This document shows, piece after piece, positions 4,821 to 61,747 of a stretch of DNA of 64,000 bases. The notes under the pieces are model-generated. The model saw only the letters and a list, made by a program, of their open reading frames with translations. It was not told the origin of the DNA and searched no databases. The position numbers and the translations under genes are program-made. This stretch comes from an uncultured Christensenellaceae bacterium (GTDB lineage Bacteria > Bacillota > Clostridia > Christensenellales > CAG-1252), in contig CAZUET010000001.1 of the NCBI GenBank assembly GCA_964619685.1, positions 7,719 through 71,718 of the forward strand, read 5' to 3'. Each line of letters begins with the position of its first letter. Position 1 is the stretch's first letter.

Positions 4821-4945
4821 TGGGTGCGTGCGTATAGTGTGTGCGTGTTATTATTAAAAAATATTATATTGACACCGCTATGGTAATAGTTGTAAACTAA
4901 TAATGATAGGTATAATCGAGAGTGTACCTAAAAGTCGGAGGATAT

Positions 4946-7900
4946 ATGAAGAGATCACTGCTAATATTTTCGTTTATATTGATATTGTCGGTAACGCTGG
5001 TATTTACCGCATGTAGGACCACGCCACCCGATATAACCGTAGATGACGACGGTTCTATGACCGTAGCCAAAGCAATAGACGAGATATATACTGCAATGAT
5101 CCACTCTTGCACGACCGACGGTGCAACCGAGGGTATCTATGTTGCATTTAGCGGAGAAAAAAGGAGTACTGATAGCGAATTGGCGGTCAATCCACATGCG
5201 ACGCTATACGATTTTGGAGCAAAAATATATATTGATTCCGATAATTTAGCTAACGATACTAAGAGTATAGCTTCATTCACCGTAAGAGAAGAAAACGGTG
5301 GCAGTTTATTTTCTTTATATTACTCAAACGGCATATTATATATAGACTATCCGCCTATACTTAATAAGATAGCTATACATGGCTTAGAGCTTGGAAATAT
5401 AGTCAATACATTGAACCAAAGTAAGGTGCATGACGGTAAGGTTAGCGAAGTGGTCGAACTGATCCCGATATTGGGAAATTATATTTTTACCGACTGTAAA
5501 AAAGTGGTATTAGATAAATGCAACGACGAAAGCTGTAATTGTATTGATCATTTTCAATACATATGTACAATTGATTTTTCACTTGTTTATTCGGCATTAG
5601 AAAATGTTTTGACAACCGCTGATTTAGGTATTGATGCGGATATGCTGTTAGGTGCTTTGAATCTAACTAAGGGCGACCTAAACCGATTAAGCAAGCTAAA
5701 TACAACGGTAACCTTTGAGGTGTATAATACAAGGGGTGGTGCGGACTACTATTATTTTAAGAATGCTTGCTTTGAATCACTTGAAGGCACAGTTACCAAT
5801 TCTGTTGCGCTTAATAGTTTCACCGCTACCGAATTTACAGAAGAGTTTTCTTCTGAATATAGCGTTCCGCTTGCCGATAATTTATCGACATATAAGCACT
5901 TTGATTTTAGGAATTTTGATTTATCGGGTACAGTTGAATTCGATTTTGACCGTACAGATTCAATAGCCGAATTATTTGGTTCATCGGTTGCTACCAAGTT
6001 TACCGATAATACCTACACATCGAATTATTCGTTTAAATCTAATTTTACCGACGGTGAAATGCATTTTTGTTTATCGCTTGATAATGTACTGAATACGGGA
6101 AATGGCATTTCTCTTTATTTTGACGGTAATAACTATTATATTGATGCAACCGCACTTTTAGGCGAAACATGCTATTATTCGTTTGATAAAGAGTATATTG
6201 AAGATAAGCTTGAAATTCTTTCTTTACTTACCGAGCCTAAGAGTTTAGACGGTATCGATAAAGCATATCTTATTGTATCACTTTTAGACGGACTTAAAAT
6301 TGACAAGGATAAAACCGTTCTCGAGATTGGCGGAAATGCACTTGAGCTTATCAAGAGCGTATCAGGTTATGATTTTGCGTACAATTATAACCGAGTTTCG
6401 TTTTCTTTAGATACCTCTAACAATTTATTCAAGTCATTATCGCTTGCATTATACGGAGATGGACTTACCGTTAATCTGTCGGCAACAACGCCTACGGTGG
6501 GATATGAAGTATCTGTTATTGAGCCGTTGTGGATAGAAAAATGCCAAAAATGGAATAGCATTAACACATTAACTCCGGTAATAAGCGGTAGGATAGAAAC
6601 AAATATAACGCACCTTAACAATGCCGAGCTTGTGTCGAGCTTGATATCGAGCTTAAGTGGCGAAAATGTAACTATCGACGGAGAAATTACCGACTTTGTG
6701 GCGGAATGTAATTTTACCGCAAAGGGTGCTCTTGATATATTTAAGCTATCATTTTACGGTTCTGAAAATTCTTTAGTTTGCTCAATATACTACAAGTCAT
6801 CACTCGATATGATCTATGTAATATTCCCCGAGCAAAACGGAACCAATAAGATACTATCGTTGAATCTTCTTGATAGCGGACGGTACGCTTCATTTTTAGG
6901 CGACATAAACGGAAATGCACTTGTAACATCTAATTCGTCGGCGGTTCTAAAAAATGATGCTAACGGTTTATTGTTATCGGCTGGTCGAGATGGAGCCAAT
7001 GAAATACTATCATTCATAAGCCGACTTTTACCCGATAAGGGCGTAAAAGAGCTTCCCATAGATTTTGCAGTCGATACATTCACGCTATCTATCGGAAACG
7101 GAATAAGATTTAGCACGCTATTTGCCAAGAATAAGCGAATTGACCTAATTATTGATGATATTACGCTCGAGCATTACGATCTATCCGTAAAAACTAAAGA
7201 ATTAGGCGGTCATGATGGACGCACGGTATCTATATTCGATGTTAACGACTTATCGAATACTGTTACCGTTGAAATGAACGGAAAGGAAAGCTCTACCCTT
7301 ATTATTAATGTATCGGATATAGGTGGATGGCATTGCGATAATGTGCCATCACTTGGTGCAGGCGTTCGAGAGGTCAATGCATATATCGAATTGCTCGGAC
7401 AGCGTATAACCGAAACCGTTACGGTCGATTTTACCGATGTGAGCGAGCATTCAGTCAATATTCCTTTAGATTATATCGATTATGTTGATAATAGTGCTAA
7501 GACATTTATCTTTGATGGCTTTAATAGTGCTGTCGATCCCATAAAGGTATTGTCGAATGGTTTTAATACCATTGGAATGACGGTCGGAACACATTATATC
7601 AATAAATCGGTTATCTGGACATATGGCGGTAAGCCTATTGACCAAGCTGTATTTACCCAAGGCTCCGAATTTAGAGTAACGCCCTCTGTTATAGGCTTTT
7701 TCGGGGATGCGTTAGAGCTTAACTCCTGTGCATACACCGTTAAGCTGACCGATACCGATATTGATAAGATTGAAAATGCAGAGAGCTTTATGGACATCTA
7801 TGCATACGCTATCTTCGATCCTTTTGACACAGCAACCTATTCACAAACCGATGCATATGTATTAACAAAGAGCGGAAAGCGTTTTAAAGCGGATTTATTA

Positions 7901-10900
7901 TGGGATACCGAATCTATTCATAATAGGTCGGTCAAGGTAAACGACATTTTGCTTACCGATTCCGAGCTTGTATCGGCAATGAAAAATAGATTATTTAGTC
8001 TTGACGGAACATATGAGATAACTGCATATATAATCAATTCGTTAGGTGTACCAACCGAATTAAAGGCGATGATCAATATATCCGATCGAATTATTAATAA
8101 TACCCGACTGGTAGGTCTTAATGACGGAATTTCTATTATTGGCGACGGTATATTATTGTTTGATCAAATAAAGATTCCGTCAATAGACTCGAATACTGTG
8201 ATTGCAAGAGAAGTGGAATTGACCTTTTCTAACGGCACACAATCGGAAAGAGCGGTAAAATGGGAGATTCCTGTGGTTAAAAATGTTCCTTTATATTCGA
8301 CAGATACAATAAGCGGAAGTATCTCTCTTATTGTGGGTGACGATATAGGCGGATATCAATCATTTGAATATCCCTATGTATTTAAAAACTATAACATTAC
8401 ATCTATATCTCTTTACAGCGGAACAACGGCAGTCGCTACCGAAAATGAAGTCGGTTCGATAGTCAAGTTTGAGCTTTTGAATAATAATCCATATGATTTT
8501 AGCATTCCCGATAAGGTGGTAATGGATTATTCCGCATGTACTCTTACCGTAGACGAGAAAAGCTTTGATTTTGATGCATCGAGTATAATTATTGAGAATA
8601 TCGATTGGAATCTTAGATCCTATAATGATAAAGAAATATGGTATAGAGGTGAACACTATATCTATGGCGGAGTAATATCCGTTGCAGATATGTATATTGA
8701 ATTAAGCATCTCATTTGTTAAGGCAGTTGTGGAGAATTGGAGCCTTTTAGATGCAGACGGTAATCCGTCAAATCTTACAGACCCGATATTGACCACTCCG
8801 ACATATGTAGAAGATTCAAAAGGCGAATATGTTTTGGTGAACGGACGATTTGTGATTGGTAATGAAACTCATATAGGACTTAAGTACTACCGCATAGAAA
8901 GCGGAATTGAAGGCTTGGTATACTATAGACCGATAGACGGTGACACCGAGTACAGTATTACCATTGATCCAAATAGAACGCACTATTTGTGTTATGACAG
9001 TTATCCGTCTACAGCACGAGTTTCATTTAAGGGGATAACCGATGCTAATGGACAAAGCATTTATTTTGATCTACCGCTTAACTGGGATCTATCGTCATTA
9101 ACTGCGGTGGATGTAGCTTCAAACGGCTACTACGAAAAGGTTCCCGTATATATACCGCTTGGTCAAAGACTTGCCGATATTCGTCTATGGATATCGAGTA
9201 AGGACCCTAACGATTACTATTTTGTATTTGATTCGCAGGGTGAACCATTTCTTGGAGATGTCGAAAATAACGAGGCTAATCTATTTAAGACTAAAATAAT
9301 AAGCGTAAAGCTTCTCGATACCGACTTGAATGGAAATTTGGTGGTTCACAATTTGAACGATACGGCATTATTGCATAGTCTTATTTGCGGATGCGATAAT
9401 AACGGCTGTATGGGTAAGCTGTATTTTGAATATGCAGATGCAAATACAGTCAATAGTTGGTTTGATATTACCGAATGGATAGGCTTAGACGATATTAGTA
9501 AGTTGTATCGCCAAGAGATAGCAAAGGGCGTGTCGGTTAATGAAGTCAGTGGAAGAATATCACTTACCGCTAAGGTCGGTAATATAATATGCTCAGCATT
9601 GACATTGTCAATAGAAGGCTCGCCGTTAGTATCACCTTCTTTTGACGGATACTTGCCGTTAGCAAACTCATCTGTCAATAATTCGACAGCTGATATATAT
9701 TCAATGACTGCGTCGGGTACGGATATTACGGTTGATCCCTATCTTGTAAATGCATCAGACTCACGCTCGTATCCAAAGAAGGTATCGTTCTATCTCGACG
9801 GAGTAAAAACGGTAGCACGCCTTGATGGATGGAATTGTGATATTTTTGTAGGAAAAACGCTGTATTTAGGTGTAAGCGGTCAAGCTCAAGCCGTTATACA
9901 AACTATTTTCGGAGATATAGAGATTCCATGTACTGTCACTGTCAGCCGTAGAGTGGTTGACAGTGTATACATTGACGGAGTTTCATTAAGACGGATAAAT
10001 ATAAATGCATTTGACGATTCACCCTTTGGCGAAAGCATAGTTAATGAAAATGGTAGAGTGATAGCGTATAAGGCTGTTGAAGTGAAATTTACCGACGATG
10101 ACCGTCTATACTACATGATGCTGAAATATGATATTACAGGTATGACTGCCGATTGCCACGGTGGATTGATTTCAAGTGATATAGATGCATATATCGGCAA
10201 TGACGCAGGCGGATATCAACTGATAAGGGGATACTCAGTATATTCTGTTCAAAATACTTTAGAATCGATAACAACAGATAATGCAGTTGTTAGAGAATTT
10301 ATTGCAGACGGTAAGATATATTCTCAAGACAAGGGTTTTGCATCCTTTGACGGGGCAATAAATGATTCTAAAGCCAACCTTGCTTGGAAAGAATTGGTTA
10401 CCAATGTCGATAGCTTGACTTTAACTTATTCATATTATAAGGACGGAATTAAGGTAGTTAAGACTGTGAATGCTCGAAACGATTATTTATCGGTATTTGC
10501 CTTTGACTTCGTGTTCGACCAAACAGTATACTTAAAAATATGGAACGGAAAAGATATTGTCGGTAGCGCTCCTATCGTATCGATCGACTGCGGAATAAAT
10601 AAACCGATAATGTTATTTAAAACCGATCTTGCATTGAATGGACTTGCTTTATCACGAGAATATGATGCCCAATATACCGCAGGACAGTATTTAATTGATA
10701 ATCCAATCGAATCGAATATCGTCTTGCTTGATACTAAGACAATTAGCGTCAAATTGCTCGATGCAAAAGGTGGTGCTGTCGATATGGATAGCATTCTTAC
10801 GGTTGGCGATTACACGCTATCGATCGTTATTGAAGACGGTAGATTTGTATTATCTGATGACGGAATAAATAAGCTCGACTCAATAGAATTGACCGTAACC

Positions 10901-11191
10901 GTAACACAAAGAAAAATAGACAAACTCACCATACTTAACGGGGATAGAAATATATTTAATTCATCCTCTGTATATGAGATATATGAAGGAGCATCTATCG
11001 CATTAGCGGTAGTGAATGAGTATGATTTTGATACAGCCATTGAGTTATTTGATAGCTTGGGTAATAAGGTAACCTATCCTGAAAGTGTAGGAAACTATAC
11101 CGTTAAGGTCATTTCACTCGACAAGAATTATACAATTATAAACGATACATATACGCTGATAATAAAATCACGAGAAAATCAAAAAGAATAA
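4946..11191 (+). CDS. giant (2081 aa) lipoprotein of unknown function
   Basis: Uninterrupted 6.2 kb ORF. I prefer ATG 4946 (SD GGAGGA 4937-4942) over the track GTG 4922 because it gives the lipobox signal MKRSLLIFSFILILSVTLVFTAC. Asn/Ser/Thr/Asp/Tyr-rich and beta-like; no catalytic or adhesin motif recognised. Confidence 0.8.
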   Translation: MKRSLLIFSFILILSVTLVFTACRTTPPDITVDDDGSMTVAKAIDEIYTAMIHSCTTDGATEGIYVAFSGEKRSTDSELAVNPHATLYDFGAKIYIDSDNLANDTKSIASFTVREENGGSLFSLYYSNGILYIDYPPILNKIAIHGLELGNIVNTLNQSKVHDGKVSEVVELIPILGNYIFTDCKKVVLDKCNDESCNCIDHFQYICTIDFSLVYSALENVLTTADLGIDADMLLGALNLTKGDLNRLSKLNTTVTFEVYNTRGGADYYYFKNACFESLEGTVTNSVALNSFTATEFTEEFSSEYSVPLADNLSTYKHFDFRNFDLSGTVEFDFDRTDSIAELFGSSVATKFTDNTYTSNYSFKSNFTDGEMHFCLSLDNVLNTGNGISLYFDGNNYYIDATALLGETCYYSFDKEYIEDKLEILSLLTEPKSLDGIDKAYLIVSLLDGLKIDKDKTVLEIGGNALELIKSVSGYDFAYNYNRVSFSLDTSNNLFKSLSLALYGDGLTVNLSATTPTVGYEVSVIEPLWIEKCQKWNSINTLTPVISGRIETNITHLNNAELVSSLISSLSGENVTIDGEITDFVAECNFTAKGALDIFKLSFYGSENSLVCSIYYKSSLDMIYVIFPEQNGTNKILSLNLLDSGRYASFLGDINGNALVTSNSSAVLKNDANGLLLSAGRDGANEILSFISRLLPDKGVKELPIDFAVDTFTLSIGNGIRFSTLFAKNKRIDLIIDDITLEHYDLSVKTKELGGHDGRTVSIFDVNDLSNTVTVEMNGKESSTLIINVSDIGGWHCDNVPSLGAGVREVNAYIELLGQRITETVTVDFTDVSEHSVNIPLDYIDYVDNSAKTFIFDGFNSAVDPIKVLSNGFNTIGMTVGTHYINKSVIWTYGGKPIDQAVFTQGSEFRVTPSVIGFFGDALELNSCAYTVKLTDTDIDKIENAESFMDIYAYAIFDPFDTATYSQTDAYVLTKSGKRFKADLLWDTESIHNRSVKVNDILLTDSELVSAMKNRLFSLDGTYEITAYIINSLGVPTELKAMINISDRIINNTRLVGLNDGISIIGDGILLFDQIKIPSIDSNTVIAREVELTFSNGTQSERAVKWEIPVVKNVPLYSTDTISGSISLIVGDDIGGYQSFEYPYVFKNYNITSISLYSGTTAVATENEVGSIVKFELLNNNPYDFSIPDKVVMDYSACTLTVDEKSFDFDASSIIIENIDWNLRSYNDKEIWYRGEHYIYGGVISVADMYIELSISFVKAVVENWSLLDADGNPSNLTDPILTTPTYVEDSKGEYVLVNGRFVIGNETHIGLKYYRIESGIEGLVYYRPIDGDTEYSITIDPNRTHYLCYDSYPSTARVSFKGITDANGQSIYFDLPLNWDLSSLTAVDVASNGYYEKVPVYIPLGQRLADIRLWISSKDPNDYYFVFDSQGEPFLGDVENNEANLFKTKIISVKLLDTDLNGNLVVHNLNDTALLHSLICGCDNNGCMGKLYFEYADANTVNSWFDITEWIGLDDISKLYRQEIAKGVSVNEVSGRISLTAKVGNIICSALTLSIEGSPLVSPSFDGYLPLANSSVNNSTADIYSMTASGTDITVDPYLVNASDSRSYPKKVSFYLDGVKTVARLDGWNCDIFVGKTLYLGVSGQAQAVIQTIFGDIEIPCTVTVSRRVVDSVYIDGVSLRRININAFDDSPFGESIVNENGRVIAYKAVEVKFTDDDRLYYMMLKYDITGMTADCHGGLISSDIDAYIGNDAGGYQLIRGYSVYSVQNTLESITTDNAVVREFIADGKIYSQDKGFASFDGAINDSKANLAWKELVTNVDSLTLTYSYYKDGIKVVKTVNARNDYLSVFAFDFVFDQTVYLKIWNGKDIVGSAPIVSIDCGINKPIMLFKTDLALNGLALSREYDAQYTAGQYLIDNPIESNIVLLDTKTISVKLLDAKGGAVDMDSILTVGDYTLSIVIEDGRFVLSDDGINKLDSIELTVTVTQRKIDKLTILNGDRNIFNSSSVYEIYEGASIALAVVNEYDFDTAIELFDSLGNKVTYPESVGNYTVKVISLDKNYTIINDTYTLIIKSRENQKE

Positions 11192-12613: not shown

Positions 12614-13528
12614 ATGAAGAAAAAACTGTGTATTATCTTAGTATTAGTATTGTTACTGACACTTGTTTTTGTTGGATGTAGTTCAGGTTCGAATTATTAT
12701 CCCGGTGAAAATCCCACCGGAGGTGATTATTACGGAAAGGATAATGAAGCGTCGGGATATTACGACGGAGCTGATACTTCGGAAAGTGGTGAAGCCTCAC
12801 CCGACCGTAAGATCATTTATACCGCAAGCACAAGATTGACAGTCGAAAATATAAAGGAAGCAAGCTCTGCCGTTAGAGAAAAGCTAAATGCGGATGAATG
12901 GGTAGAATCGTCGTCGATAGAAAGCAGTTATGCTCGCTTTGTTTTTAGAATAAAATCGTCGAGGTTGGAAGCATTTTTGAACGATCTTGAGGGAATAGGC
13001 GAGGTTTCGTCTACTTCAATATCATCGGACGATGTTTCGTTGTCGTATTACAATAATACAGTCCGTAAGGCTACATTAGAAGCGGAGCAAACCAGACTTA
13101 TATCTTTAATAGGTGAAGCATCTGTCAGTGAGATAATAACCATCAATAAGCGACTCAGCGAGATAGAAACCGAACTCAAAAGAATTGAAGGTACACTTAA
13201 AAATTATGACAGTTTGGTGGATTATAGCACCGTAACCGTTAATATTTACACCAAGACAACCGTTCAAAAGGATACATTTGGTTCTAAATTGTTAGAGTCA
13301 ATGGAAGGCGGACTTAGATTTGCAGAAGGCTTGATAATTTTCCTATTAACAGCACTTCCGTTCATAATCGTTATTGGCGGAATAATAGTTTTAGTTATTT
13401 ATCTTGTCAAAAGACATAAGAAGATTAAGAGTGGCGAGCTTGTACCAAAGAGCAAGCGTAAGCAACTCGAAGCAGAACAAAAGGGAAAAGATATCGATAA
13501 AACCCCTTCTCCCGACGATAAAGAATAA
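12614..13528 (+). CDS. DUF4349-like lipoprotein with C-terminal TM anchor
   Basis: 304 aa; SD AAGGAG; lipobox LVFVGCSS; low-complexity linker; RKIIYTAS...coiled-coil; C-terminal TM. The DUF number is from memory. Confidence 0.65.
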   Translation: MKKKLCIILVLVLLLTLVFVGCSSGSNYYPGENPTGGDYYGKDNEASGYYDGADTSESGEASPDRKIIYTASTRLTVENIKEASSAVREKLNADEWVESSSIESSYARFVFRIKSSRLEAFLNDLEGIGEVSSTSISSDDVSLSYYNNTVRKATLEAEQTRLISLIGEASVSEIITINKRLSEIETELKRIEGTLKNYDSLVDYSTVTVNIYTKTTVQKDTFGSKLLESMEGGLRFAEGLIIFLLTALPFIIVIGGIIVLVIYLVKRHKKIKSGELVPKSKRKQLEAEQKGKDIDKTPSPDDKE

Positions 13529-13533
13529 TATAT

Positions 13534-13667
13534 TGTCCGCCGTCATACCGACTTTCGTCCTGTCATATCGGGCGGAGCGTAAGCGTAGTCAAACTGCGAA
13601 GCAGTGCGAGGTGTAACCGAGCAGTATCTTGGACGGGTAACGCCATGCCATTTGGTATCTTGCGGAT
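13534..13667 (+). repeat. modular intergenic repeat, copy A
   Basis: TGTCCGCCGTCATACC / TTTCGTCCTGTCATATCGG / GCGGAGCGTAAGCGTAGTCAAACTGC-GAA-GCAGTGC / GCAGTATCTTGGACGG / TTTGGTATCTTGCGGAT. Same module order as the other copies. Confidence 0.8.
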
Positions 13668-18823: not shown

Positions 18824-18916
18824 ATCCGCTGTCGTTCCCAGGTGTTGCGGTGAAACCATAGGTCGAACTGCCTAAGCAGTGCAAGATGCAGTTTTGCGGT
18901 AGCTTGGACGGGTAAC
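18824..18916 (+). repeat. modular intergenic repeat, copy B (lacks the last right-hand module)
   Basis: ATCCGCTGTCGTTCCCA ... GTCGAACTGC-CTAA-GCAGTGCAAG...TTGC ... AGCTTGGACGGGTAAC. Lies between convergent genes. Confidence 0.7.
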
Positions 18917-36579: not shown

Positions 36580-36623
36580 GTTTTTTACTTTCCGTGATTG
36601 ACGATCGATATAAATAATGGAGT

Positions 36624-36752
36624 GTTCGCCGTCATACTGAGATTGTTTCCGTCCAGTTATACTCAAGCGAAGTCGAACTGCCTAAGCAGTGCAAGGCAAA
36701 GCCTTGCAGTATCTTGGACGGTAACAAAAGAATAATTTTGTATCTTGCGGAC
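36624..36752 (+). repeat. modular intergenic repeat, copy C (best-preserved)
   Basis: GTTCGCCGTCATACTGAG / TTTCCGTCCAGTTATACTCAAG / CGAAGTCGA-ACTGC-ctaa-GCAGT (36677-36690) / GCAAGGC-aaa-GCCTTGC (36691-36707) / AGTATCTTGGACGG / TTTTGTATCTTGCGGAC. Confidence 0.8.
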
Positions 36753-36873: not shown

Positions 36874-36883
36874 ATAAACATCT

Positions 36884-37047
36884 ATGATAGAGGTGCGTCC
36901 GATATCAGTAAGTTAACTGTCTTGACGATTGCGGTTAACCGAAAGGAGAGGTCGCCGAAGTTTGACGAGTATGTCAAAACTCGTTTTGCTGGGATAAGAT
37001 ATAATATGTCTTATACTGTCGCATCTAAAAATGTGGAGTGCTATCTA
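36884..37047 (+). promoter_or_regulatory. lysine riboswitch (L-box) aptamer
   Basis: GATAGAGGTGCG...AGTA...GAAAGGAGAGGTCGCCGAAG...CTGG...ACTGTC...TGGAGTGCTATC matches the conserved L-box blocks in the same order as the B. subtilis lysC leader. Confidence 0.85.
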
Positions 37048-37063
37048 TTTTGTGGTTATCTTG

Positions 37064-37138: not shown

Positions 37139-37984
37139 ATGAAAAAATTAATTTCTATCGTATTAATTCTTGTTCTCGTTTTATCCGTCGTTAGTTGCTT
37201 GACCGCTTGCAATAACGAAGAAAGCGAAAAAGACTATATCAGCGTAGGCTTAGAGTGTGGATATGCTCCATATAACTGGACACAACCCACCGCTGATGAT
37301 GGTGCAGTTAAAATCGATAATGGCTATGGCTATGCCGGTGGCTATGATATAATGATAGCTAAAAAGGTCGCCGAAGCACTTGGTAAGGAATTGAGAGTTT
37401 ATAAATATGAATTCAATGCTTTGATTCCCGCAGTTAAATCGGGTACATTGGACTTTATCATTGCAGGTATGTCACCGACAGAAGAAAGAATGAAATCGAT
37501 CGATTTTACCGATGTTTATTATAACGGTGATCTTGTAATCGTTGTAAGAAAAGACGGTGCTTTTGCATCTGCTGAAAATCTTGATGATTTTAATGGAGCT
37601 AAACTTGTTGCTCAACAAGGAACATTCCACGAAACCGCACTTAAAGATCAAGGAGCTTCTCACGGTATCTCTGTACAAACCTCTTTGGATACCTTCCCGC
37701 TTATGATAAATGCGCTCAAGTCAAAGGCAATTGACGGCTATATTGCGGAAGAACCGGGTGCAAAGGCTGATTGTGCTGCAAATAGCGATTTTACATATAT
37801 TCCACTTAAGAACAATACAACAGGCTTTATCGCAAGCGATGAAGATACTGCTATCGCTATTGGACTTAAGAAGGGTAGCGCATATAAAGATGTTATAAAT
37901 CAAGTTTTAGCAACAATTTCTACTGAAGAAAGACTAGCATTAATGGAAGAAGCAACTGAATTGAGTACAAAGTATGTAGGATAG
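37139..37984 (+). CDS. polar amino-acid ABC transporter substrate-binding lipoprotein (lysine inferred from the riboswitch)
   Basis: 281 aa; SD GAGAGGA; lipobox CLTAC; family-3 SBP features (DFIIAGMSPTEER, GYIAEEP). Confidence 0.85.
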   Translation: MKKLISIVLILVLVLSVVSCLTACNNEESEKDYISVGLECGYAPYNWTQPTADDGAVKIDNGYGYAGGYDIMIAKKVAEALGKELRVYKYEFNALIPAVKSGTLDFIIAGMSPTEERMKSIDFTDVYYNGDLVIVVRKDGAFASAENLDDFNGAKLVAQQGTFHETALKDQGASHGISVQTSLDTFPLMINALKSKAIDGYIAEEPGAKADCAANSDFTYIPLKNNTTGFIASDEDTAIAIGLKKGSAYKDVINQVLATISTEERLALMEEATELSTKYVG

Positions 37985-37988
37985 TACA

Positions 37989-38771
37989 ATGGATTTTTTT
38001 GAAGTAGTAAAAGGGATATTTTCGGAAAAATTATATATTCAACAGGTTCTTAGAGGTATCGGTTTAACATTATTGGTGTCGATAGTAGGTACCATTATGG
38101 GACTCTTGATTGGCTTAATAGTTGGTGTTATTCGTACCTATCCTGTTAGTCCGCACAATAAGGTCGGTAGAGTATTTAAGAAGATTGTTGATTTTATTAT
38201 AGGTGCATATGTCGAGGTGTTTAGAGGCACTCCTATGATGGTACAAGCTATGGTCATCTATTGGGGCTATGCTGCTCTTTCGGGTGGTAAAACACTTGAT
38301 GTAACCGTGTCTGCTTTGTTTATCGTCAGCATAAATACCGGAGCGTATATGGCTGAGATCGTAAGAGGTGGTATAATCTCAATAGACAAGGGACAATTTG
38401 AGGGAGCAGAGGCAATTGGAATGAGCCATTTCCAAACAATGGTATATGTAGTAATTCCCCAAGTCATGCGTAATATTCTACCATCCGTTGCAAACGAGTT
38501 TATAATCAACATTAAGGATACGTCTGTATTGAATGTTATTGGTTTTGCCGAGCTGTTCTTTGTTACTAAGGATATAGCTGCTAATAACTATTTGGTATTT
38601 GAAACCTATTTATTAGCGGCGATCATCTACTTTATTTTGACCTTTGGTATCAGTAGGATCCTTTTATTGATCGAGCGCAAGCTTGCCGGCAGTAAAAACT
38701 ATGTTATTAAGGGATCGGGCAATATGGACGCCGAATCCATAGCTATCACCAACGAGGTTGGTAAGGAGTAA
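37989..38771 (+). CDS. polar amino-acid ABC transporter permease
   Basis: 260 aa; His/Glu/Gln/Arg-type permease with EAA loop [20 protein letters not shown]. Confidence 0.85.
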
Positions 38772-38773
38772 TT

Positions 38774-39559
38774 ATGAACGAAACAATTAATAACGAACGG
38801 ATTAATGATAGCGAATATATTATAGAGGTCGAGCATGTAGGTAAGGTCTTTGGTGACCACGAGGTTTTGAATGATATCGACTTTAAGGTTAGAACCGGCG
38901 AGGTGATTTGCATAATCGGCTCGTCCGGTAGCGGTAAGTCTACCCTTTTACGCTGTATAAACAAGTTCGAAGATATTACGACAGGTTCAATATCATATCG
39001 TGGTGATAATATTGACACCATCCATGATCGTGCACTTTTCCGAACCAAGGTGGGAATGGTATTCCAATCTTTTAACTTGTTCAACAATATGACTGTTCTA
39101 AAAAACTGTATAATAGGACAGACCAAGGTACTTAAAAAGTCTAAGCAAGAGGCTGAAGAAAACGCACTCAAATATTTAGAAATGGTCGGTATGGGCGAAT
39201 ATGTCAATGCAAAACCGCATCAATTATCGGGCGGACAAAAGCAAAGAGTTGCTATAGCTCGAGCGTTGGCAATGCAACCCGAGATCCTTCTTTTTGACGA
39301 GCCTACATCAGCATTGGACCCTGAAATGGTCGGCGAGGTTTTGGATATAATGAGAGAACTTGCAGGTTCGGGCTTGACTATGCTTGTGGTAACTCATGAA
39401 ATGGGTTTTGCACAAGATGTTGCGACAAGGGTACTGTTTATGGATCAGGGCGTAATAGTCGAGGACGACACTCCCGAAGTGATATTCACTAATCCAAAAG
39501 AGGAGCGTACAAAAGAATTCCTCAAGCGTGTATTGTCAAACGACACTCAAAACGCATAA
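38774..39559 (+). CDS. polar amino-acid ABC transporter ATPase (GlnQ-like)
   Basis: 261 aa; [43 protein letters not shown]. Confidence 0.9.
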
Positions 39560-40794: not shown

Positions 40795-42330
40795 CTATAC
40801 AATGAATGCAAGGGCTATTAGACAGGTGCAGAGTAAGCCCTTTTTGAGATAGTTTAGGGAGCAATAGTCGGAAAAGATGACTAATGCGGAGTACCAAAAC
40901 GGCAAGCCTCCTTCAGAAAATGTAAGATTAAATGACAACCTCGGTTTGGATAATGTGTTAGCAATATACGAAGAAAGTAACACAATATATCTTGCAGCGA
41001 TAGCAAAAGGCTTTACTAATAAGGTCAATGCCGAAATAGGTATACAGATAAATGTAAGCACATATGCCACACTTGTCAGCGGAATAATAAAGAAGCTACC
41101 AACGATTGCCATTGGCGAAAATGAAGAGAAAAAGTATGCACCCATCGGAATCAGTGATATTGTGATCGATAAATTAAGCATTAGTGCCTCGCCTGTTTTC
41201 TTAAATCTACCAAGTGATTCAAGCGGTCTTTTCATTATTGGATATATCAAATATGCACCAAGCACAGCACCATAACTTAATAAGAAACTCATATCACCCA
41301 ACCATACAGGCTTGAAAATCAAAGACACGAAAGCGGCAAAGCACCAAATTGATATTTTATCGGGGCATGCCCTAAAATTTGTTAGGAAACTCGCCATTAA
41401 AAACATTATCGACGCCCTTAATACCGATGGAGAAAAATTGCACAAATAGGCATAAAAGCCAAAGACGGGAAGTAATACAAAGGGTGTTACCTTAGCAGGA
41501 ACACGCAACTTTTTACATATAAATGTTAGGACAGAGCTTAAAACGCCTATATGAAGTCCCGATACAGCGAATACATGTGCGACACCGATGGCGGTAAAAC
41601 TGAATTTGATATCATAATCAAGATATTCCGATTCGCCAAACATGATACTCATAAGATAATTTGCAGTATCGTTATCTGTGGTTTTAATAAATGCGTCTTT
41701 GATAAAGGATACTATTTCATTTCTTGGCGATTTATAAGAGGTAAACTCATATTGGAAAAGATCGATATCAAGCTCGTAATATATGCCCTTAGCTATACGA
41801 TGCAGTTGGTATGTATCTGTTATTTCGAAAGTTGTCAAAGTACCGCCAAACCCGATATAATCGCCTACCTTTGCATCTATGTTGGTAATCAAAACATTTC
41901 CGTTAAGCTTTTTACCCTCTAAAACTACATCACCGACGATAACTTGACCGCTGTTCGATATAGATTCGACCACACCCGTACCTGTATAATAGCCCGATTC
42001 TATATAATCGTTTCTGTTAAATGAATATAGGTAAAGAAACCCCTCAAAGGACAGCACTATGGCGACAATACAAGCGATTATAAGCCGTTTATCGAAAACT
42101 CCGAAAAAGCCAAAAAGCAACAATATACTTGCAAGCCCCACATAAATCCATACAATATATCTATACCAGAAGAACCACGCCACAAGCCCCAAGACGAAAA
42201 ATATCAGTATAACCGGCAACGGTCTGATTACAATCATTCTCCGCTTATTGATGTTTCGTCTTAACTCGTATGTTACATTATTTTCCATTTGTACAGATTT
42301 TTTTGATATGTATATAAAATTACGGAACAA
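40795..42330 (-). CDS. comEC: ComEC/Rec2-family DNA-uptake channel (no metallo-beta-lactamase domain)
   Basis: 511 aa polytopic protein; Competence-domain motif GVAHVFAVSGLHIGVL. The true start may be the internal MENNV... (42288). Confidence 0.8.
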   Translation of the reverse strand: MFRNFIYISKKSVQMENNVTYELRRNINKRRMIVIRPLPVILIFFVLGLVAWFFWYRYIVWIYVGLASILLLFGFFGVFDKRLIIACIVAIVLSFEGFLYLYSFNRNDYIESGYYTGTGVVESISNSGQVIVGDVVLEGKKLNGNVLITNIDAKVGDYIGFGGTLTTFEITDTYQLHRIAKGIYYELDIDLFQYEFTSYKSPRNEIVSFIKDAFIKTTDNDTANYLMSIMFGESEYLDYDIKFSFTAIGVAHVFAVSGLHIGVLSSVLTFICKKLRVPAKVTPFVLLPVFGFYAYLCNFSPSVLRASIMFLMASFLTNFRACPDKISIWCFAAFVSLIFKPVWLGDMSFLLSYGAVLGAYLIYPIMKRPLESLGRFKKTGEALMLNLSITISLIPMGAYFFSSFSPMAIVGSFFIIPLTSVAYVLTFICIPISALTLLVKPFAIAARYIVLLSSYIANTLSKPRLSFNLTFSEGGLPFWYSALVIFSDYCSLNYLKKGLLCTCLIALAFIV

Positions 42331-50415: not shown

Positions 50416-50691
50416 CTATTTATTTTCTAAGAGTTCTCTAAAGTTAACTACCCTAACACTTGGAGATCTTGAGCCCATACCCCAGCATATACCGCTGACA
50501 AATCCCATTGATAATTTAGGATCAATTCCCATATGATAGTCGCAGTGGTCTTGGTCGGGTTTTATCTCGTCGCCATTCATCCATCTACAGCCGTTATCCT
50601 TTGCCCATTGTAAAAATGCAACACCATCTTCGTTTTCAACATAAAACCAAACATGATTTTTACCTTTAAGTAATTTCTTTAATTTTTCCAT
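50416..50691 (-). CDS. 91-aa protein of unknown function (cargo of the SAM riboswitch)
   Basis: ATG 50691 with SD AAGGAG; sequence MEKLKKLLKGKNHVWFYVENEDGVAFLQWAKDNGCRWMNGDE.... The track extension to 50781 overlaps the riboswitch terminator and is rejected. Confidence 0.65.
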   Translation of the reverse strand: MEKLKKLLKGKNHVWFYVENEDGVAFLQWAKDNGCRWMNGDEIKPDQDHCDYHMGIDPKLSMGFVSGICWGMGSRSPSVRVVNFRELLENK

Positions 50692-50730
50692 AAATATACT
50701 CCTTATAAACATATTTTTTCCATAAAGAGT

Positions 50731-50876
50731 ATAAAGAATAAAGAAAGATCCCATCGCATTCGATAGGATCATAGTGTGCAATATTAAACCCCATCGAATC
50801 AGACATTAGCACCTTGCCTTATCGGTAGGTTGCTGTGACATCATAGGGTCTGTCCCTCCGTCACTCTTTATGGTTA
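50731..50876 (-). promoter_or_regulatory. SAM-I riboswitch (S-box) with terminator
   Basis: Minus strand CCAUAAAGAGUGACGGAGGGACAGACCCUAUGAUGUCACAGCAACC...AAGGUGCUAAUG...CACUAUG. The terminator is GAUCCUAUCG-aaug-CGAUGGGAUC (50747-50770) plus a U-run. An aptamer 3' segment CGAUGGGG can pair with the terminator 5' arm, giving an antiterminator. Confidence 0.8.
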
Positions 50877-50947: not shown

Positions 50948-51120
50948 GTCCCCGTCTTGTCATACGCTTTCTGTTCACTTATTTTAAGTTTTATCGTAAT
51001 GTGTTTATCCTTGTCTGCTGTCATACTGAGATAAATCAATTCATTTACAAAGCAAATGAGGAATTTATCTCGACAGCGGGCAACGGTCTGATTATAATGA
51101 CAGGACGTGAATATTGGTAC
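50948..51120 (+). repeat. modular intergenic repeat, copy G (degenerate)
   Basis: GTCCCCGTCTTGTCATACGC, TTGTCTGCTGTCATACTGAG, inverted module ATAATGACAGGACG, and ATTGGTACC. The core is replaced by unrelated sequence. Confidence 0.5.
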
Positions 51121-55540: not shown

Positions 55541-58309
55541 TTAATCCTTATACCAATAGTAGTTTTTATATGTCGATTTGAAGTAAGTAGCATTTTTTTT
55601 CGGATCGCTTACATCGACAGGTATACCATCTTGCTTACTTTTAAAATTATCGATTTTTTCTGTTACATACCAGCCATTTGGATCTTCAAATTTTACGCTT
55701 ATGAGATTATTACAATACTCGAAAGCAGAATCACCAATGCTTGTTACGCTATTGGGGATAGTAATACTTGTAAGACCAGTGCAGCCTTCGAATGCAGAAT
55801 CACCGATGCTTGTTACGCTATTGGGGATAGTAATACTTGTAAGACTAGTGCAGCCTTCGAATGCATAATCACCAATTCTAGTTATGCTATTTGGAATTAT
55901 ACTATTTTTGCAACCAAGAATAAGTTTATTAGTATCAGTTTCAATTAGACAATTATCTTTACTATGATATTTTGTATTTTTGGCATCTACTATTATTTTT
56001 TCAAGACCAGTGCAGCCACGGAATGCTTTCCACTCAATACTTGTTACGCTATTAGGAATAGTTATACTTGTGAGACCAGTGCAGTCGCTAAATGCAAAAT
56101 CATCGATGCTTGTTACATAATTGGGGATCTTGCTATTTTTACAGCCTAATATTAATGTGTTAGTTCCTTTTCCAATTACACAGTCATCAATTGCATAAAA
56201 ATAAGGATTCTTTTTGTCAACAATAATACGATATAAACTTTGTAACCTAAACAAAGGAGGCGATGATACGCTCTCAAGTATTTTTATGCTGGTAATATTT
56301 GGGCATATTAAAAAAAGCTCTTCGCTTACTATATGACCTCCCACTCTTTTTTCACTGTCTATAGACAATTCTTTGAGTTTTATACTTACTGATTCGATTA
56401 ATGGAGCGTATGCTAAAGTGTAGTCGCAATGCTCCACGTCACATATTTCATTAAAAAGATAACACTGAATGGGTGATAATGCTCCTTTTTCGTTTTCTGC
56501 GAGTTTACACTGTTTATTGTATATGCTCTCTAATCCGCCCTTAAAATCATATAAAACTGTATAGTAGAATAATTCTTCGTAAGGATTAGTACAATGCTCA
56601 TCTTTAATTTCGTGGGTATCATAATCGTAATTTGTTACGCCCCTTTCTCCCCTTATTAGCATTCCCCTTATCAGAACTTCTTCTGCAAGTGGTTTGTTAT
56701 TTTCAGTATCAATAAATTGTGATACCGCATCGCAAAGAATATCATAATCGGGTTCATCCACCAACGGGACTTTGACCATTTTAAAATTATCGTCAAGACC
56801 TTGCATTGTTTTCAGCATCGTTAGTAACATTTTCAATCTTTCTTCCACGCCTGCTCGTTGCTCGGTAGAGTCGTTAAATTGTCTTTGTGCATTTTGTTCA
56901 AATAGACAAAGCAGAGTCTTAACTACTTCTTTCCAATAGTCGGCTTGTTTATTGATTTCTTTTACAATTTCATTAATTCGATTATTATCACAGATACATT
57001 TATATAAGTAATAGGCACAATAATAGGATGCAAATAACTCATGGCTAAATCCGTTCTCGTCTACTAAGGTATGTTCTTGGAAAAAGTGCTTTAGGGTATC
57101 CTTTTCTTGATGAATATTAATGATTCCTCTCAAAAGGGAGTCAACATCTAACCAGTCGACTGATTTTCCGTCCTTTTTCTGATATATTTTATAAGAGACC
57201 TGTCCTAATACTTCTTTTATTGCAGAAATATCGGTACTGGTATAGGTTTTGCTATTTTCTTTAGCCATATCTCTTTGTATTAATTCCTTGATAACTAAGT
57301 CAAAGAGAACCACTCTGCTTTGTGGAAGATTCTTAGCATTATTCTCGTATACATTTTTAATCAAGCACAATAGAAGAGGATTTCTTGATAGCTTTTTATA
57401 ATTAGGATCTCTTGTTTCAGCATCAAGAATAGCATTATATAATTCGTCATTTTTGAGGAAATCCTTAAGCTTGTCGTCAGCTATTTCATCCAAAATCCAT
57501 TTGCGGATGAGTATATCTTGAGATAAGCGTAATTCATTACTATTACAAATATCAGCTTGTCCTGGTCTGGATGAAAAAATCAAGTATGAATCACTTAAAC
57601 TATCTGCAACTAATGTTTTGAATGCCGTAAAATCATTAGGAGATACTTCGTCTATTGCATCAAAAATATAACATATCTCATATTTCTTAGAAATATAATC
57701 GAAGGAGTCAATATTTACATTTATCGTATTAAAAACTGCTTCTATTATATTACCTGTATCCTTAGATAAATGAGAAACAACATTTTTAATTTCTACATAA
57801 ATTGGAAAGAAAGGCTTGTCTTTTGTTGTTTGATCGTATAAACAGTTACATATCTTCTTTACAAATACCGATTTTCCTTGTCCTGCGTCGCCCACGATAA
57901 GAGCTCGCTTTTCTTTTTTTAATTCGGTAATAAAACCTTCAATTGAACAACTAATAACATAATTGGGAGCCTGTTTATTTTGTTCAAGGGCTTTGTTGTT
58001 TTCTTCGATTTCTTCTAAAGTTAATTGTCGACTTATACCAAAATCCCATGTTTTATCAAGGGTTGTGGTTTTAATAGAAAAACCGTCCGAAATAGTATTG
58101 ATATGGTTGAACTGTTGTTTTAAGAAGTTTTCTACATCTTTCTTTGCGTCCCTTTTTGTCTTCTTGGCAGCTTTACGCTTTTCATTGCGTTTTTTGAAAA
58201 GATTTATAATTAGTGGAATAAGTATAGCTGTAAATATTGCACCAATAACTGTAGTAACTACTTCAGTTGAAAACTTTGACCAATCTATTGCAGATAAAAG
58301 ATTTAGCAT
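55541..58309 (-). CDS. membrane-anchored NACHT-type STAND NTPase with C-terminal BspA-type leucine-rich repeats (NLR-like architecture)
   Basis: ATG 58309 (SD AGGTG), 922 aa. One N-terminal TM helix (about 58196-58264) is followed by a Lys/Arg-rich stretch. Walker A VGDAGQGKS (57869-57895), Walker B ICYIFDAIDEV, then IFSSRPG: the NACHT order. A long helical middle follows. The C-terminus has at least 6 units of type IPNSVTSIGDSAFEGCTGLTSITI (about 55676-56250). Confidence 0.85.
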   Translation of the reverse strand: MLNLLSAIDWSKFSTEVVTTVIGAIFTAILIPLIINLFKKRNEKRKAAKKTKRDAKKDVENFLKQQFNHINTISDGFSIKTTTLDKTWDFGISRQLTLEEIEENNKALEQNKQAPNYVISCSIEGFITELKKEKRALIVGDAGQGKSVFVKKICNCLYDQTTKDKPFFPIYVEIKNVVSHLSKDTGNIIEAVFNTINVNIDSFDYISKKYEICYIFDAIDEVSPNDFTAFKTLVADSLSDSYLIFSSRPGQADICNSNELRLSQDILIRKWILDEIADDKLKDFLKNDELYNAILDAETRDPNYKKLSRNPLLLCLIKNVYENNAKNLPQSRVVLFDLVIKELIQRDMAKENSKTYTSTDISAIKEVLGQVSYKIYQKKDGKSVDWLDVDSLLRGIINIHQEKDTLKHFFQEHTLVDENGFSHELFASYYCAYYLYKCICDNNRINEIVKEINKQADYWKEVVKTLLCLFEQNAQRQFNDSTEQRAGVEERLKMLLTMLKTMQGLDDNFKMVKVPLVDEPDYDILCDAVSQFIDTENNKPLAEEVLIRGMLIRGERGVTNYDYDTHEIKDEHCTNPYEELFYYTVLYDFKGGLESIYNKQCKLAENEKGALSPIQCYLFNEICDVEHCDYTLAYAPLIESVSIKLKELSIDSEKRVGGHIVSEELFLICPNITSIKILESVSSPPLFRLQSLYRIIVDKKNPYFYAIDDCVIGKGTNTLILGCKNSKIPNYVTSIDDFAFSDCTGLTSITIPNSVTSIEWKAFRGCTGLEKIIVDAKNTKYHSKDNCLIETDTNKLILGCKNSIIPNSITRIGDYAFEGCTSLTSITIPNSVTSIGDSAFEGCTGLTSITIPNSVTSIGDSAFEYCNNLISVKFEDPNGWYVTEKIDNFKSKQDGIPVDVSDPKKNATYFKSTYKNYYWYKD
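55725..55862 (-). repeat. two tandem 69-bp units (67/69 identical) encoding adjacent LRR units
   Basis: Units 55725-55793 and 55794-55862 differ at two positions. A diverged third unit follows at 55863-55931. Confidence 0.85.
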
Positions 58310-58358
58310 TAACAACACCTCTTGCTTTTGTAAATTGTAGATTTTTGTCTACTTTTTT

Positions 58359-58439: not shown

Positions 58440-58547
58440 GCGGATACAATACCAACTATTGTTAAAGTCCGCAAGATACCAAACGCCTACGACGTTTGAT
58501 CCCCATTGCATTCGGATTTCGACTGACGCTCAGTATGACAGCGGACA
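58440..58547 (-). repeat. modular intergenic repeat, copy D (inverted orientation)
   Basis: The plus strand reads GTCCGCAAGATACCAAACG ... CTCAGTATGACAGCGGACA. This is the reverse complement of the right-module...left-module order seen in the other copies. Confidence 0.7.
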
Positions 58548-58614
58548 ATATTATGTCATATATAAGGTCCATTTTTTTTAATGAAGCACTCACCTACGCT
58601 ACGCTTCATAGGAC

Positions 58615-58820
58615 AATGTCCTGTCATACTAACCATTAGAATGATGGAACTGTTATTCGTCCGCCGTCATACTAACGTCCGTCCTGTCATACTGAGCGGA
58701 GCGTAAGCGAAGTCGAACTGCAACGCAGTGCAAGGCAGAGTCTTGCAGTATCTTGGACGGAAGTGTCACAGCCGTTTGGTATCTTGCGGACGAAAATGTA
58801 TTGCGGTATGATGGCGGACG
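58615..58820 (+). repeat. modular intergenic repeat, copy E (extended, with extra terminal inverted module)
   Basis: ATGTCCTGTCATACTAACC; CGTCCGCCGTCATACTAA; CGTCCGTCCTGTCATACTGAG; CGGAGCGTAAGCGAAGTCGAACTGC-aac-GCAGTGCAAG-gcagagt-CTTGC; AGTATCTTGGACGG; GTTTGGTATCTTGCGGACG; GGTATGATGGCGGACG. Confidence 0.8.
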
Positions 58821-61135: not shown

Positions 61136-61462
61136 ATGGATAAAAAAATAAATAGAGCTGCACAATTTATGCCATTTGATGCACTTAAAGGATTGCAAGA
61201 AGAGTTAAGAAAAAGAGAAGAATTGCATTCCCGTGCCGAAAAACGAGTGATGGATGAGGAAGCACTTAACGAGATTTCTGTAATGCTTAATCGAATTCGT
61301 AAAGGTGATCATGTTTCCGTTGAGTTCTTTTATAATGGACATAGCCTAAAAACATATGGTGATGTTGTGGATAAAAAGATAACCGAAAAAATATTGGTTC
61401 TTGATAATGCTTCTATTCATTTCGAAGACATATATAAGATTACTATTTGTCCGCTATCATAG
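61136..61462 (+). CDS. YolD-like protein (usual partner of UvrX-type polymerases)
   Basis: 108 aa; SD AAGGAG; RAAQFMPFDALKGLQEEL motif. The last codons and the stop lie inside the first module of repeat copy F. Confidence 0.7.
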   Translation: MDKKINRAAQFMPFDALKGLQEELRKREELHSRAEKRVMDEEALNEISVMLNRIRKGDHVSVEFFYNGHSLKTYGDVVDKKITEKILVLDNASIHFEDIYKITICPLS

Positions 61463-61692
61463 TTATCCCTATCCGCTGTCATAGTGAACTTGTTTCCGTC
61501 TTGTCTTACTGGGAATAGAATCTCGTCCGCCGTCATATTGACTTCCGTCCTGTCATACTGAGTGTAGTCGAAATTTGAGCGTAGCGAGAATCAAATTGTG
61601 CAACAATTTGGTATCTTGCGGACGAACGAATGGATGGAAGGTCTTTTAGTATCTTGGACGGGAACGATGCGCCGATTGGTATCTTGGGGACT
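61448..61692 (+). repeat. modular intergenic repeat, copy F (expanded: about 5 left and 3 right modules, variant core)
   Basis: TGTCCGCTATCATAG; ATCCGCTGTCATAGTG; TTTCCGTCTTGTCTTACTGG; CGTCCGCCGTCATATTGA; TTCCGTCCTGTCATACTGAG; core hairpin AATTTGA...TCAAATT; TTTGGTATCTTGCGGACG; TAGTATCTTGGACGGG; TTGGTATCTTGGGGAC. Confidence 0.8.
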
Positions 61693-61716
61693 AAAGTTCG
61701 TACAAATAAATTAAAT

Positions 61717-61747
61717 AAAAAAGCAAGCCGTTTAGGCTTGCTTTTTG
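61717..61747. terminator. bidirectional terminator overlapping the yitT stop codon
   Basis: AAAAAAGCAAGCC-gttta-GGCTTGCTTTTT. Confidence 0.7.

Follow-up and report, generated by a model that had tools for sequence, protein, structure and literature searches.

A nested mosaic hairpin repeat in a Christensenellaceae genome, probably related to CGTC-tagged REP elements

Background

CGTC-tagged repetitive extragenic palindromic (REP) elements are defined by an unpaired CGTC or TGTC (or CCTC) tag, a stem of 8-9 bp starting with A-T/T-A pairs, a loop of 4-5 nt and a 3-nt tail with the consensus CCA (Di Nocera, De Gregorio & Rocco 2013, BMC Genomics 14:522, PMC3733652). They occur mostly as head-to-head dimers and are known from five phyla as families CGTC-1 to -4, which include dRS3 of Neisseria and RPE-4/RPE-6 of Rickettsia (PMC3733652). 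No tyrosine transposase gene flanked by CGTC-type repeats was found in the same survey, and a dedicated enzyme may be lacking (PMC3733652). Here we describe intergenic elements that probably belong to this group of repeats. They were found in a stretch of 64,000 nucleotides (the window) from an uncultured Christensenellaceae bacterium of the class Clostridia (assembly GCA_964619685.1, contig CAZUET010000001.1, positions 7,719 to 71,718), where a representative element, copy C, occupies positions 36624..36752.

In Neisseria, the repeat NTS (CGTCATTCCCGCGMAVGCGGGAATCYRG) and Ssn-related motifs (SRM) flank ssnA, a GIY-YIG gene with a product of 94 aa (Chenal et al. 2025, Nat Commun 16:2388, PMC11893778). 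SsnA binds the single-stranded DNA (ssDNA) hairpin and cuts just upstream of it on one strand only, being inactive on double-stranded DNA and on RNA (PMC11893778). The published view of this hairpin system goes no further than a filter on transforming DNA. The CGTC-tagged REPs of 2013 are equivalent to the NTS and Ssn-related motifs of 2025.

Structure of the repeat

The original prediction listed seven loci of a modular, hairpin-forming repeat (copies A to G), and the sequences described for them are present at all seven. An unsupervised repeat search recovers the same loci as families of 3-5 copies (families D2-D5, D7, D8 and D10). The modules L1 (GTCCGCYGTCATACTGA), L2 (CGTCCTGTCATACTGAG), R2 (CAGTATCTTGGACGG) and R1 (TTGGTATCTTGCGGAC) are confined to these loci in a fuzzy scan of the window allowing at most 2 mismatches. 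The motif YGTCATAYYRA occurs 11 times in the window at an expectation of 0.78, and none of 100 shuffles reaches 11; GTATCTTGSRSRS occurs 9 times at an expectation of 0.07, and no shuffle equals that count. A nucleotide profile of copies A, C and F matches these three, B, G and, weakly, E, and nothing further in the window; copy D is too degenerate to be detected by it. This sequence profile was used instead of a covariance model, because RNAalifold, applied to the three near-identical sequences of A, C and F, could not choose between nested L1/R1 plus L2/R2 pairing and the alternative L1/R2 pairing.

To compare the arms, each left arm was aligned with the reverse complement of its right arm. 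The outer helix (GTCCGC or CCGTCC) and the inner helix (ATAC[TG]) are identical between the arms in all ten pairs, and the predicted reverse complementarity of left and right modules is thereby borne out in both helices. Between the helices, YGTC of the left arm is aligned with AAG of the reverse-complemented right arm, which corresponds to a top-strand tail of CTT (again 10/10 pairs). The tag is CGTC or TGTC in L1 and TGTC in L2 and stands directly before ATAC, the sole exception being AGTT in L2 of copy C. All pairs read ..YGTC-ATAC.. / ..GTAT-CTT.., the stem beginning with A-T and T-A. Since the helices are identical and YGTC is opposite to CTT, each left/right pair is a hairpin base with a conserved asymmetric internal loop. 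There are two pair types with covarying outer helices. The inner stem has 4-6 bp and is followed by 40-110 nt between the arms, which hold further helices. Copies E, F and G have in common the core motif TGTCATACTGAGYG-N(1-12)-AGTCGAA (core pattern TGTCATACTGAGYG..AGTCGAA..GTATCTT).

Because this YGTC/CTT signature matches both the published definition of CGTC repeats and the two ends of the SRM search string, the elements were assigned to the CGTC/SRM superfamily. The copies in the window are probably non-autonomous, nested mosaic REP-like repeats of the CGTC/TGTC-tagged superfamily (Neisseria dRS3/NTS; Ssn-related), elaborated in a Clostridia lineage and spread by an Ssn-type nuclease. They had been regarded as a previously unrecognised kind of repeat; however, the module base (unpaired CGTC/TGTC tag, stem starting with AT, short 3' tail) and the core fit the described superfamily.

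Whole copies differ in their folding potential. Compared with shuffled sequences, the z-scores of RNA folding are -4.4 for C, -4.3 for F, -1.9 for G, -1.8 for E, -1.2 for A and -0.4 for B; with DNA parameters they are -4.0 for C, -3.3 for F, -2.9 for E and +0.6 for A. The expected long hairpin is seen in copies C and F, which fold clearly better than shuffles; copy E is intermediate, whereas A and B do not fold better. Copy C forms a long nested hairpin (RNA, -44.6 kcal/mol). The small stem ACTGC/GCAGT is indeed kept in A, B, C and F, but it is identical in all four and hence has zero covariation; copies G and E hold other hairpins at this position.

Minimal units in other genomes

A strict pattern of the L1-L2 pair has a single match in a scan of a genome collection, a true relative in a Christensenellaceae metagenome-assembled genome (MAG). 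The core pattern TGTCATACTGAGYG..AGTCGAA was found at at least 120 metagenome loci from many environments and also in one viral contig. As the metagenome matches were selected by a pattern derived from the window, only features outside the pattern count as independent evidence. Most of the matches listed are units of 25-30 nt of the form yTGTCAT-NNN-GAGCG-N-AGTCGA-N'N'N'-ATCT. GTAT, the 4 nt after the pattern and outside it, closes the ATAC stem in 59 of the 96 distinct short-loop units among these matches. In viral matches to GTCATNNNGAGCGAAGTCGANNNAT, where the stem triplets were left free, the triplets are complementary in 20 of 21 cases, with six different triplets represented. In our interpretation, the minimal unit would pair by 5 Watson-Crick pairs, tandem G.A/A.G and one G-C pair around a 6-nt loop CGNAGT, and would thus be near the stem and loop sizes of the published CGTC families. 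The tails of the minimal units are CTC, CTT, CTA and also GTG. Judging by these sequences, a very large family that crosses phyla has the core motif as its minimal unit.

Some of the matches share elaborations with the window copies. One (L107; contigs and loci outside the window are given by three-digit L numbers) shares the apex duplication of copy F (GAGCGGAGCGTAGCGAAGTCGAA), and in two (L060, L002) an inserted hairpin separates AGTCGAA from GGTATCT, as in the window copies. An outer helix of unrelated sequence is present in ~14% of minimal units versus 3% in a re-paired control. A BLAST search with copy F against plasmid and phage collections gave no match, and a literature search with sequence strings of the element gave chance primer matches only.

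Association with GIY-YIG genes

All 4 small GIY-YIG open reading frames (ORFs) in the 722 kb of pattern-selected loci lie within ~200 nt of units. Three further GIY-YIG loci, retrieved by protein similarity alone, are bracketed by inverted hairpin units on both sides (L157, 1464-1875; L167, 1342-1900; L174, 1469-1830). They are situated between hsdR and hsdM, beside a type IX secretion system (T9SS) gene, and between murG and murC, the last being the cassette L174 of Elizabethkingia meningoseptica; the hsdR/hsdM and murG/murC cassettes thus interrupt operons. This brings the total of unit-flanked small GIY-YIG loci to seven (L074, L115, L123, L125, L157, L167, L174). The arrangement unit-GIY-YIG-unit is that of NTS-ssnA-NTS. 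In L157, the unit encodes the C-terminal tail of the GIY-YIG ORF.

Inverted doublets without a gene, consisting of a unit, GTATGxGGGCAAAGGCC.. and an inverted unit, were observed in L038, L046, L061, L097, L121, L129, L143, L148 and L151. The inner segment of the doublets, GGCCTTTxCxC, matches the sequence beside the ends of GIY-YIG genes (L125, L167). Since this segment is shared with the cassette ends, the doublets look like internal-deletion derivatives of GIY-YIG cassettes, similar to MITEs (transposable elements of the miniature inverted-repeat type).

No units flank the GIY-YIG relatives that are encoded by phages (36-42% identity). Among 150 ORFs beside minimal units, 229 Pfam families were found, with no transposase or other family enriched. 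The Y1_Tnp domain was found neither in these 150 ORFs nor in the window ORFs tested. The latter also contain no transposase, recombinase or nuclease domains; the window has no nuclease or transposase gene, so that a partner enzyme would be encoded elsewhere.

Variation between close relatives

The elements are multi-copy, variable in presence and composition between ~96%-identical relatives, and situated at or near synteny breakpoints. As the original prediction anticipated, there are further copies outside the window. An eighth copy, made up of an L2-like module, an L1, a core of the G type and one degenerate R1, lies ~0.9 kb past the window end in a contig of the same strain (L181, 1591-1680, ~64.9-65.0 kb in window coordinates), which makes eight copies in ~65 kb. 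Three short-read (Logan) contigs of the same strain stop within copy A (L004, L005, L183), one within copy C (L001) and one within copy G (L181); contigs of close relatives (L030-L033) likewise end inside elements, and in both groups the break is usually in the shared core. Such contig ends are expected of a repeat with many copies per genome.

In relatives with 96-97% identical threonyl-tRNA synthetase (ThrRS), all four contigs stop 146 nt past the gene, inside a different, G-type variant; the gap next to the ThrRS gene there holds a terminator and this G-type variant where the window has copy B. At their other end, the same four contigs start within an R1 module that is 10 nt away from the stop codon of the rubrerythrin gene (as in L030); the window lacks an element at this place. 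A relative with a 96% identical oxidoreductase (L176) contains no modules in 21 kb, and copy C is absent from the homologous site. Its homology to the window breaks off at three places: ~25 nt short of copy C, precisely at the base with which copy G begins, and ~150 nt to the right of copy F. These synteny breakpoints (window positions 36600, 61448 and 58975, respectively) are 0-150 nt from the copies. At the copy G breakpoint, the last three yolD codons differ between the window and L176. In L176, the GNAT-uvrX-yolD block is inverted, lies beside rplL and has no elements. More distant relatives, with 91% and 79% ThrRS identity, have no modules in 22 kb each.

Similarity to described elements and alternative explanations

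The window copies resemble the CGTC-tagged REPs in the unpaired 5' CGTC/TGTC tag, in the A-T and T-A pairs that start the stem and, with CTT instead of CCA, in a short 3' tail, as well as in high copy number, intergenic position, head-to-head dimers (copies E and F), occasional overlap with ORF ends and the lack of an adjacent transposase. They differ by the added outer helix, by nested or stacked units, and by the host, a MAG of the class Clostridia, whose phylum is outside the five listed in 2013. With NTS and SRM they share a directional hairpin repeat that starts with YGTCAT and ends with ATCY; moreover, small single-domain GIY-YIG genes are flanked by inverted minimal relatives of the core, and gene-less copies number in the hundreds. 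On the other hand, no ssn-like gene was found in the window or in the sequences of relatives examined. The Neisseria intergenic mosaic elements (NIMEs; dRS3 plus RS units) and the bacterial interspersed mosaic elements (BIMEs) of E. coli similarly combine variable short palindromic units with other motifs in intergenic mosaics, vary between strains and are associated with rearrangement. However, their sequences are different, and the units in the window are mostly nested around one core, with left modules on one side and right modules on the other, instead of alternating. In REPINs (Bertels & Rainey 2011), an inverted pair of short repeats likewise makes a long hairpin that is non-autonomous and thought to move as ssDNA, and there, too, the doublets without a gene go back to the ends of a cassette that carries one. 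The differences are the tag, YGTC instead of GTAG, and the gene of the relatives, which encodes a GIY-YIG nuclease and not a Y1 HUH transposase.

Several facts weigh against the assignment to the CGTC/Ssn superfamily and against spread by an Ssn-type enzyme. The published CGTC repeats have an 8-9 bp stem and a 4-5 nt loop, whereas the window copies have 40-110 nt with extra hairpins between the arms, and their tail is CTT in 10/10 pairs, not CCA. The published SRM string, HGTCWYN(0-2)YYVSBRHN(0-5)WNVSBRGN(0-2)RNCYNB, matches the Neisseria NTS control but has no match in the window and none in the 129 minimal units (L034-L153); the window fits only its ends, HGTCWY (YGTCAT) and RNCYNB (ATCTTG). 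The proteins of the unit-flanked GIY-YIG genes resemble UPF0213 structures, and their membership in the Ssn clade (cd10448) is putative. No GIY-YIG gene was found in the window, the 21-kb locus of L176, the contigs L176-L178 and L181-L185 or the composite relatives L002, L060 and L107. Two clostridial small GIY-YIG genes, from Subdoligranulum and Acetoanaerobium, have no flanking units; they look like housekeeping genes of the UPF0213/YazA type. Mobilisation driven by Ssn is put forward only as a hypothesis by its authors (Chenal et al. 2025, PMC11893778). Finally, transposition is presumed: no site with both flanks conserved and no clean pair of filled and empty sites was found, and because the ThrRS, oxidoreductase and yolD loci of the close relatives are rearranged, no exact insertion site or target duplication can be defined.

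Other modes of mobilisation fit the data less well. Classical REPs or REPINs with a REP-associated tyrosine transposase (RAYT, IS200/IS605 type) as their mobilising enzyme, an idea put forward in the original prediction, would also be palindromic, intergenic and arranged in inverted doublets, like the head-to-head copies E and F; the cores of A (GCGTAGTCAAAC) and G (GTGTAGTCGAAA) contain GTAG, and the lack of target-site duplications at copy ends is as expected for ssDNA transposition. However, the conserved unpaired tag is YGTC, not GTAG, and GTAG arises only when T occupies the variable loop position N in GAGCG-N-AGTCGA. Furthermore, the 2013 survey encountered no tyrosine transposase beside CGTC repeats (PMC3733652), the minimal relatives flank GIY-YIG genes, no Y1 transposase domain is seen in the window ORFs tested and transposases are not enriched near 150 units. 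Thus a RAYT is very unlikely to be involved. Several directly repeated modules of ~17 nt per end, inverted between the ends and variable in number, could alternatively be multiple transposase-binding sites of a MITE that goes back to an insertion sequence of the DDE type or to a transposon like Tn7 or Mu. Such an origin is highly improbable, as target-site duplications are absent from the ends of A, C, E, F and G, the conserved asymmetry of the modules (YGTC versus CTT) would not be expected of sites bound as duplex, the core shares homology with a self-folding unit of 25 nt whose stem covaries, there is no transposase among the neighbours, and plasmid and phage collections contain no match.

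It is also rather unlikely that the elements function primarily at the RNA level, as terminators, mRNA stabilisers or small RNAs in 3' untranslated regions (3'-UTRs) or intergenic transcripts. Stabilisation of upstream mRNA is an established property of REPs. Copies A, C, F and G run in the same direction as the neighbouring gene, although any transcript across B or D would contain these copies in antisense orientation. As RNA, the top strand folds better than the bottom strand (-45.8 versus -34.9 kcal/mol in A, -32.2 versus -24.3 in E and -27.6 versus -19.9 in B), via G-U pairs. This preference was rejected as evidence of an RNA function: shuffled controls have the same strand difference, which is therefore due to base composition, and it disappears with DNA parameters. 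A terminator role, considered earlier, is unlikely, since no T-run follows any of the copies and a distinct canonical terminator (61713-61746) stands downstream of copy G. In an Rfam scan of the whole window at the gathering thresholds, only the lysine (Lys) and S-adenosylmethionine (SAM) riboswitches pass; E-value scans of copies A, C and E-G with a limit of E = 10 gave only chance-level matches (E = 0.75-9.7), and ten viral loci with minimal units gave none, so that the elements match no Rfam family. Presence or absence at the same genes in ~96%-identical relatives argues against conserved cis-regulation, and SsnA, the superfamily's characterised partner enzyme, does not bind RNA (PMC11893778).

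One could further suppose that a lineage-specific repeat, spread by an unspecified mechanism and having no Ssn-type partner, merely resembles the CGTC/SRM repeats by convergence or capture of a unit. The SRM regular expression matches nothing, the outer helices and two-hairpin cores are foreign to the published families, no GIY-YIG gene was found in the sequences of the lineage examined, and the authors of the 2013 paper themselves concluded that CGTC repeats may lack a dedicated enzyme (PMC3733652). But the signature of tag, AT stem, apex and tail is seen in every module pair and not in the core alone, graded intermediates join the minimal and composite forms, and outer helices occur in ~14% of the minimal units elsewhere as against 3% of the control. 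We therefore consider such an orphan repeat rather unlikely, and prefer the assignment to the CGTC/TGTC-tagged superfamily.

Individual copies and genomic context

In copy C (plus strand; profile E = 7e-36), L1 consists of the outer helix GTTCGC (36624-36629), the tag CGTC (36630-36633) and ATACTGA (36634-36640), and L2 of the outer helix CCGTCC (36649-36654), the degenerate tag AGTT (36655-36658) and ATACT (36659-36663). An apex remnant, CAAGCGAAGTCGAA (36664-36677), is followed by the hairpins ACTGC-ctaa-GCAGT (36677-36690) and GCAAGGC-aaa-GCCTTGC (36691-36707), then by R2, CAGTAT-CTT-GGACGG (36707-36721), and R1, GTAT-CTT-GCGGAC (36740-36752). A lysine riboswitch (36880-37051, plus strand) precedes an amino-acid ABC transporter (37139-39559), and copy C lies just upstream of this leader.

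Copy A (13534..13667, plus strand; nhmmer E = 5e-41) has the order L1-L2-core-R2-R1 and starts 6 nt past the stop codon of a DUF4349 gene, the next start codon being 41 nt downstream. Copy B (18824..18916, plus strand; E = 1e-9) retains a degenerate L1, a core (GTCGAACTGC ctaa GCAGT..) and R2 between the convergent GDPD and ThrRS genes. Copy D (50948..51120, plus strand) lies between two minus-strand genes and adjoins a SAM riboswitch. A degenerate element is indeed present there, with an L2-like module (CGTCTTGTCATACGC) and an L1-like module (GTCTGCTGTCATACTGA, 51013-51029), but its right arm is an inverted L2-like module (51091-51107) and not an R module. The SAM riboswitch (50788-50876, minus strand) is upstream of an ORF of 121 aa (50416-50781) with no Pfam match, copy D being just upstream of the leader.

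Copy E (58440..58547, minus strand) is a single-unit form, head-to-head with copy F. It consists of the outer helix GTCCGC, the tag TGTC, ATACTGAGCG-TC-AGTCGAA, a 38-nt insert, GGTAT, CTT, GCGGAC and one extra degenerate R1. Copy F (58615..58820, plus strand; E = 4e-42) contains L2', L1, L2, a core with GAGCG GAGCGTAAGCGA AGTCGAA and two hairpins, R2, R1 and an inverted L1 (58803-58819). Copies E and F border a gene for a 925-aa protein with NACHT and leucine-rich-repeat domains (55541-58318, minus strand), which is unusual for a bacterial core region and has 69-nt periodic DNA repeats at 55666-56141. Copy G (61448..61692, plus strand) has the order L1-L1-L2-L1-L2, an alternative core (GTAGTCGAA plus the hairpin AAATTTGA..TCAAATT) and R1-R2-R1. 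Its first 15 nt are the last 4 codons and the stop codon of a yolD-like ORF (61136-61462); this overlap had been ascribed to the sixth copy, but it belongs to the seventh. All other copies are entirely intergenic.

The bases directly 5' of L1 are often (T)TATT (13527-13533, 58548-58554, 58652-58658, 61441-61447). This may be a target preference or mere AT-rich intergenic DNA. The window is a region of the core chromosome, with thrS, folD, holB, prfA, prmC, comEC, ABC transporters and the two riboswitches. By its ThrRS and oxidoreductase homologues it falls among uncultured Clostridia, the named matches being MAGs of Oscillospiraceae and Christensenellaceae. The ComEC-like competence channel gene (40795-42330, minus strand) is relevant since the Neisseria member of the repeat system acts on incoming ssDNA. 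An ORF of 2089 aa at 4922-11191 (plus strand) has no Pfam match and is conserved (2081 aa) in the same-strain contig L183.

Conclusions

The prediction of a dispersed, intergenic, hairpin-forming DNA repeat of the REP/MITE type with a variable number of modules is supported. Its basic unit would be an ssDNA hairpin with an unpaired 5' YGTC, a stem starting with A-T/T-A, the apex GAGCG-N-AGTCGA and a 3' tail CTY. In this lineage the apex may have been elaborated by an internal duplication and the gain of one or two small hairpins, and an outer helix (GTCCGC/GCGGAC or CCGTCC/GGACGG) would enclose tag and tail, giving the conserved asymmetric internal loop. Nesting or stacking of such units would produce the variable numbers of left and right modules, in a mosaic like the intergenic elements of Neisseria and E. 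coli. The hairpin would form on DNA that is transiently single-stranded during replication or DNA uptake, and a small GIY-YIG nuclease of the Ssn type, with its gene in another part of the genome, would bind it and nick just upstream of the tag. The activity of the nuclease, together with recombination between copies, would then spread and reshuffle the elements. Effects on transcripts, as structure in 3'-UTRs, would be secondary.

More tentatively, and with a low probability in our estimate, the nested stacking might be the footprint of ongoing self-insertion of ssDNA hairpins into the loops of earlier copies in a Gram-positive anaerobe, or the elements might be mobilised in Clostridia by an enzyme yet to be identified. 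If self-insertion is true, it would amount to evidence from nature for the CGTC/Ssn-type hairpin system being a genuine transposable element, with the GIY-YIG cassette as the autonomous form and the gene-less doublets and mosaics as MITE-like derivatives.

Taken alone, the finding adds incrementally to a family already described, as a lineage-specific nested form rather than a novel type of element. In the chromosome of an uncultured Clostridia lineage of gut or digester type, the copies mark sites that vary and are prone to rearrangement. They break short-read assemblies at predictable places and so are a practical marker for assembly breaks. The CGTC-REP/Ssn-motif superfamily is extended by a new host group, a more elaborate nested architecture and the abundant apex class GAGCG-N-AGTCGA, and counts of Ssn-related motifs based on the published string probably miss this very abundant class. 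If the cognate nuclease is found, the composite hairpins would be natural substrates for studying how Ssn-type enzymes read tag, tail and stem, and whether DNA is moved by them.

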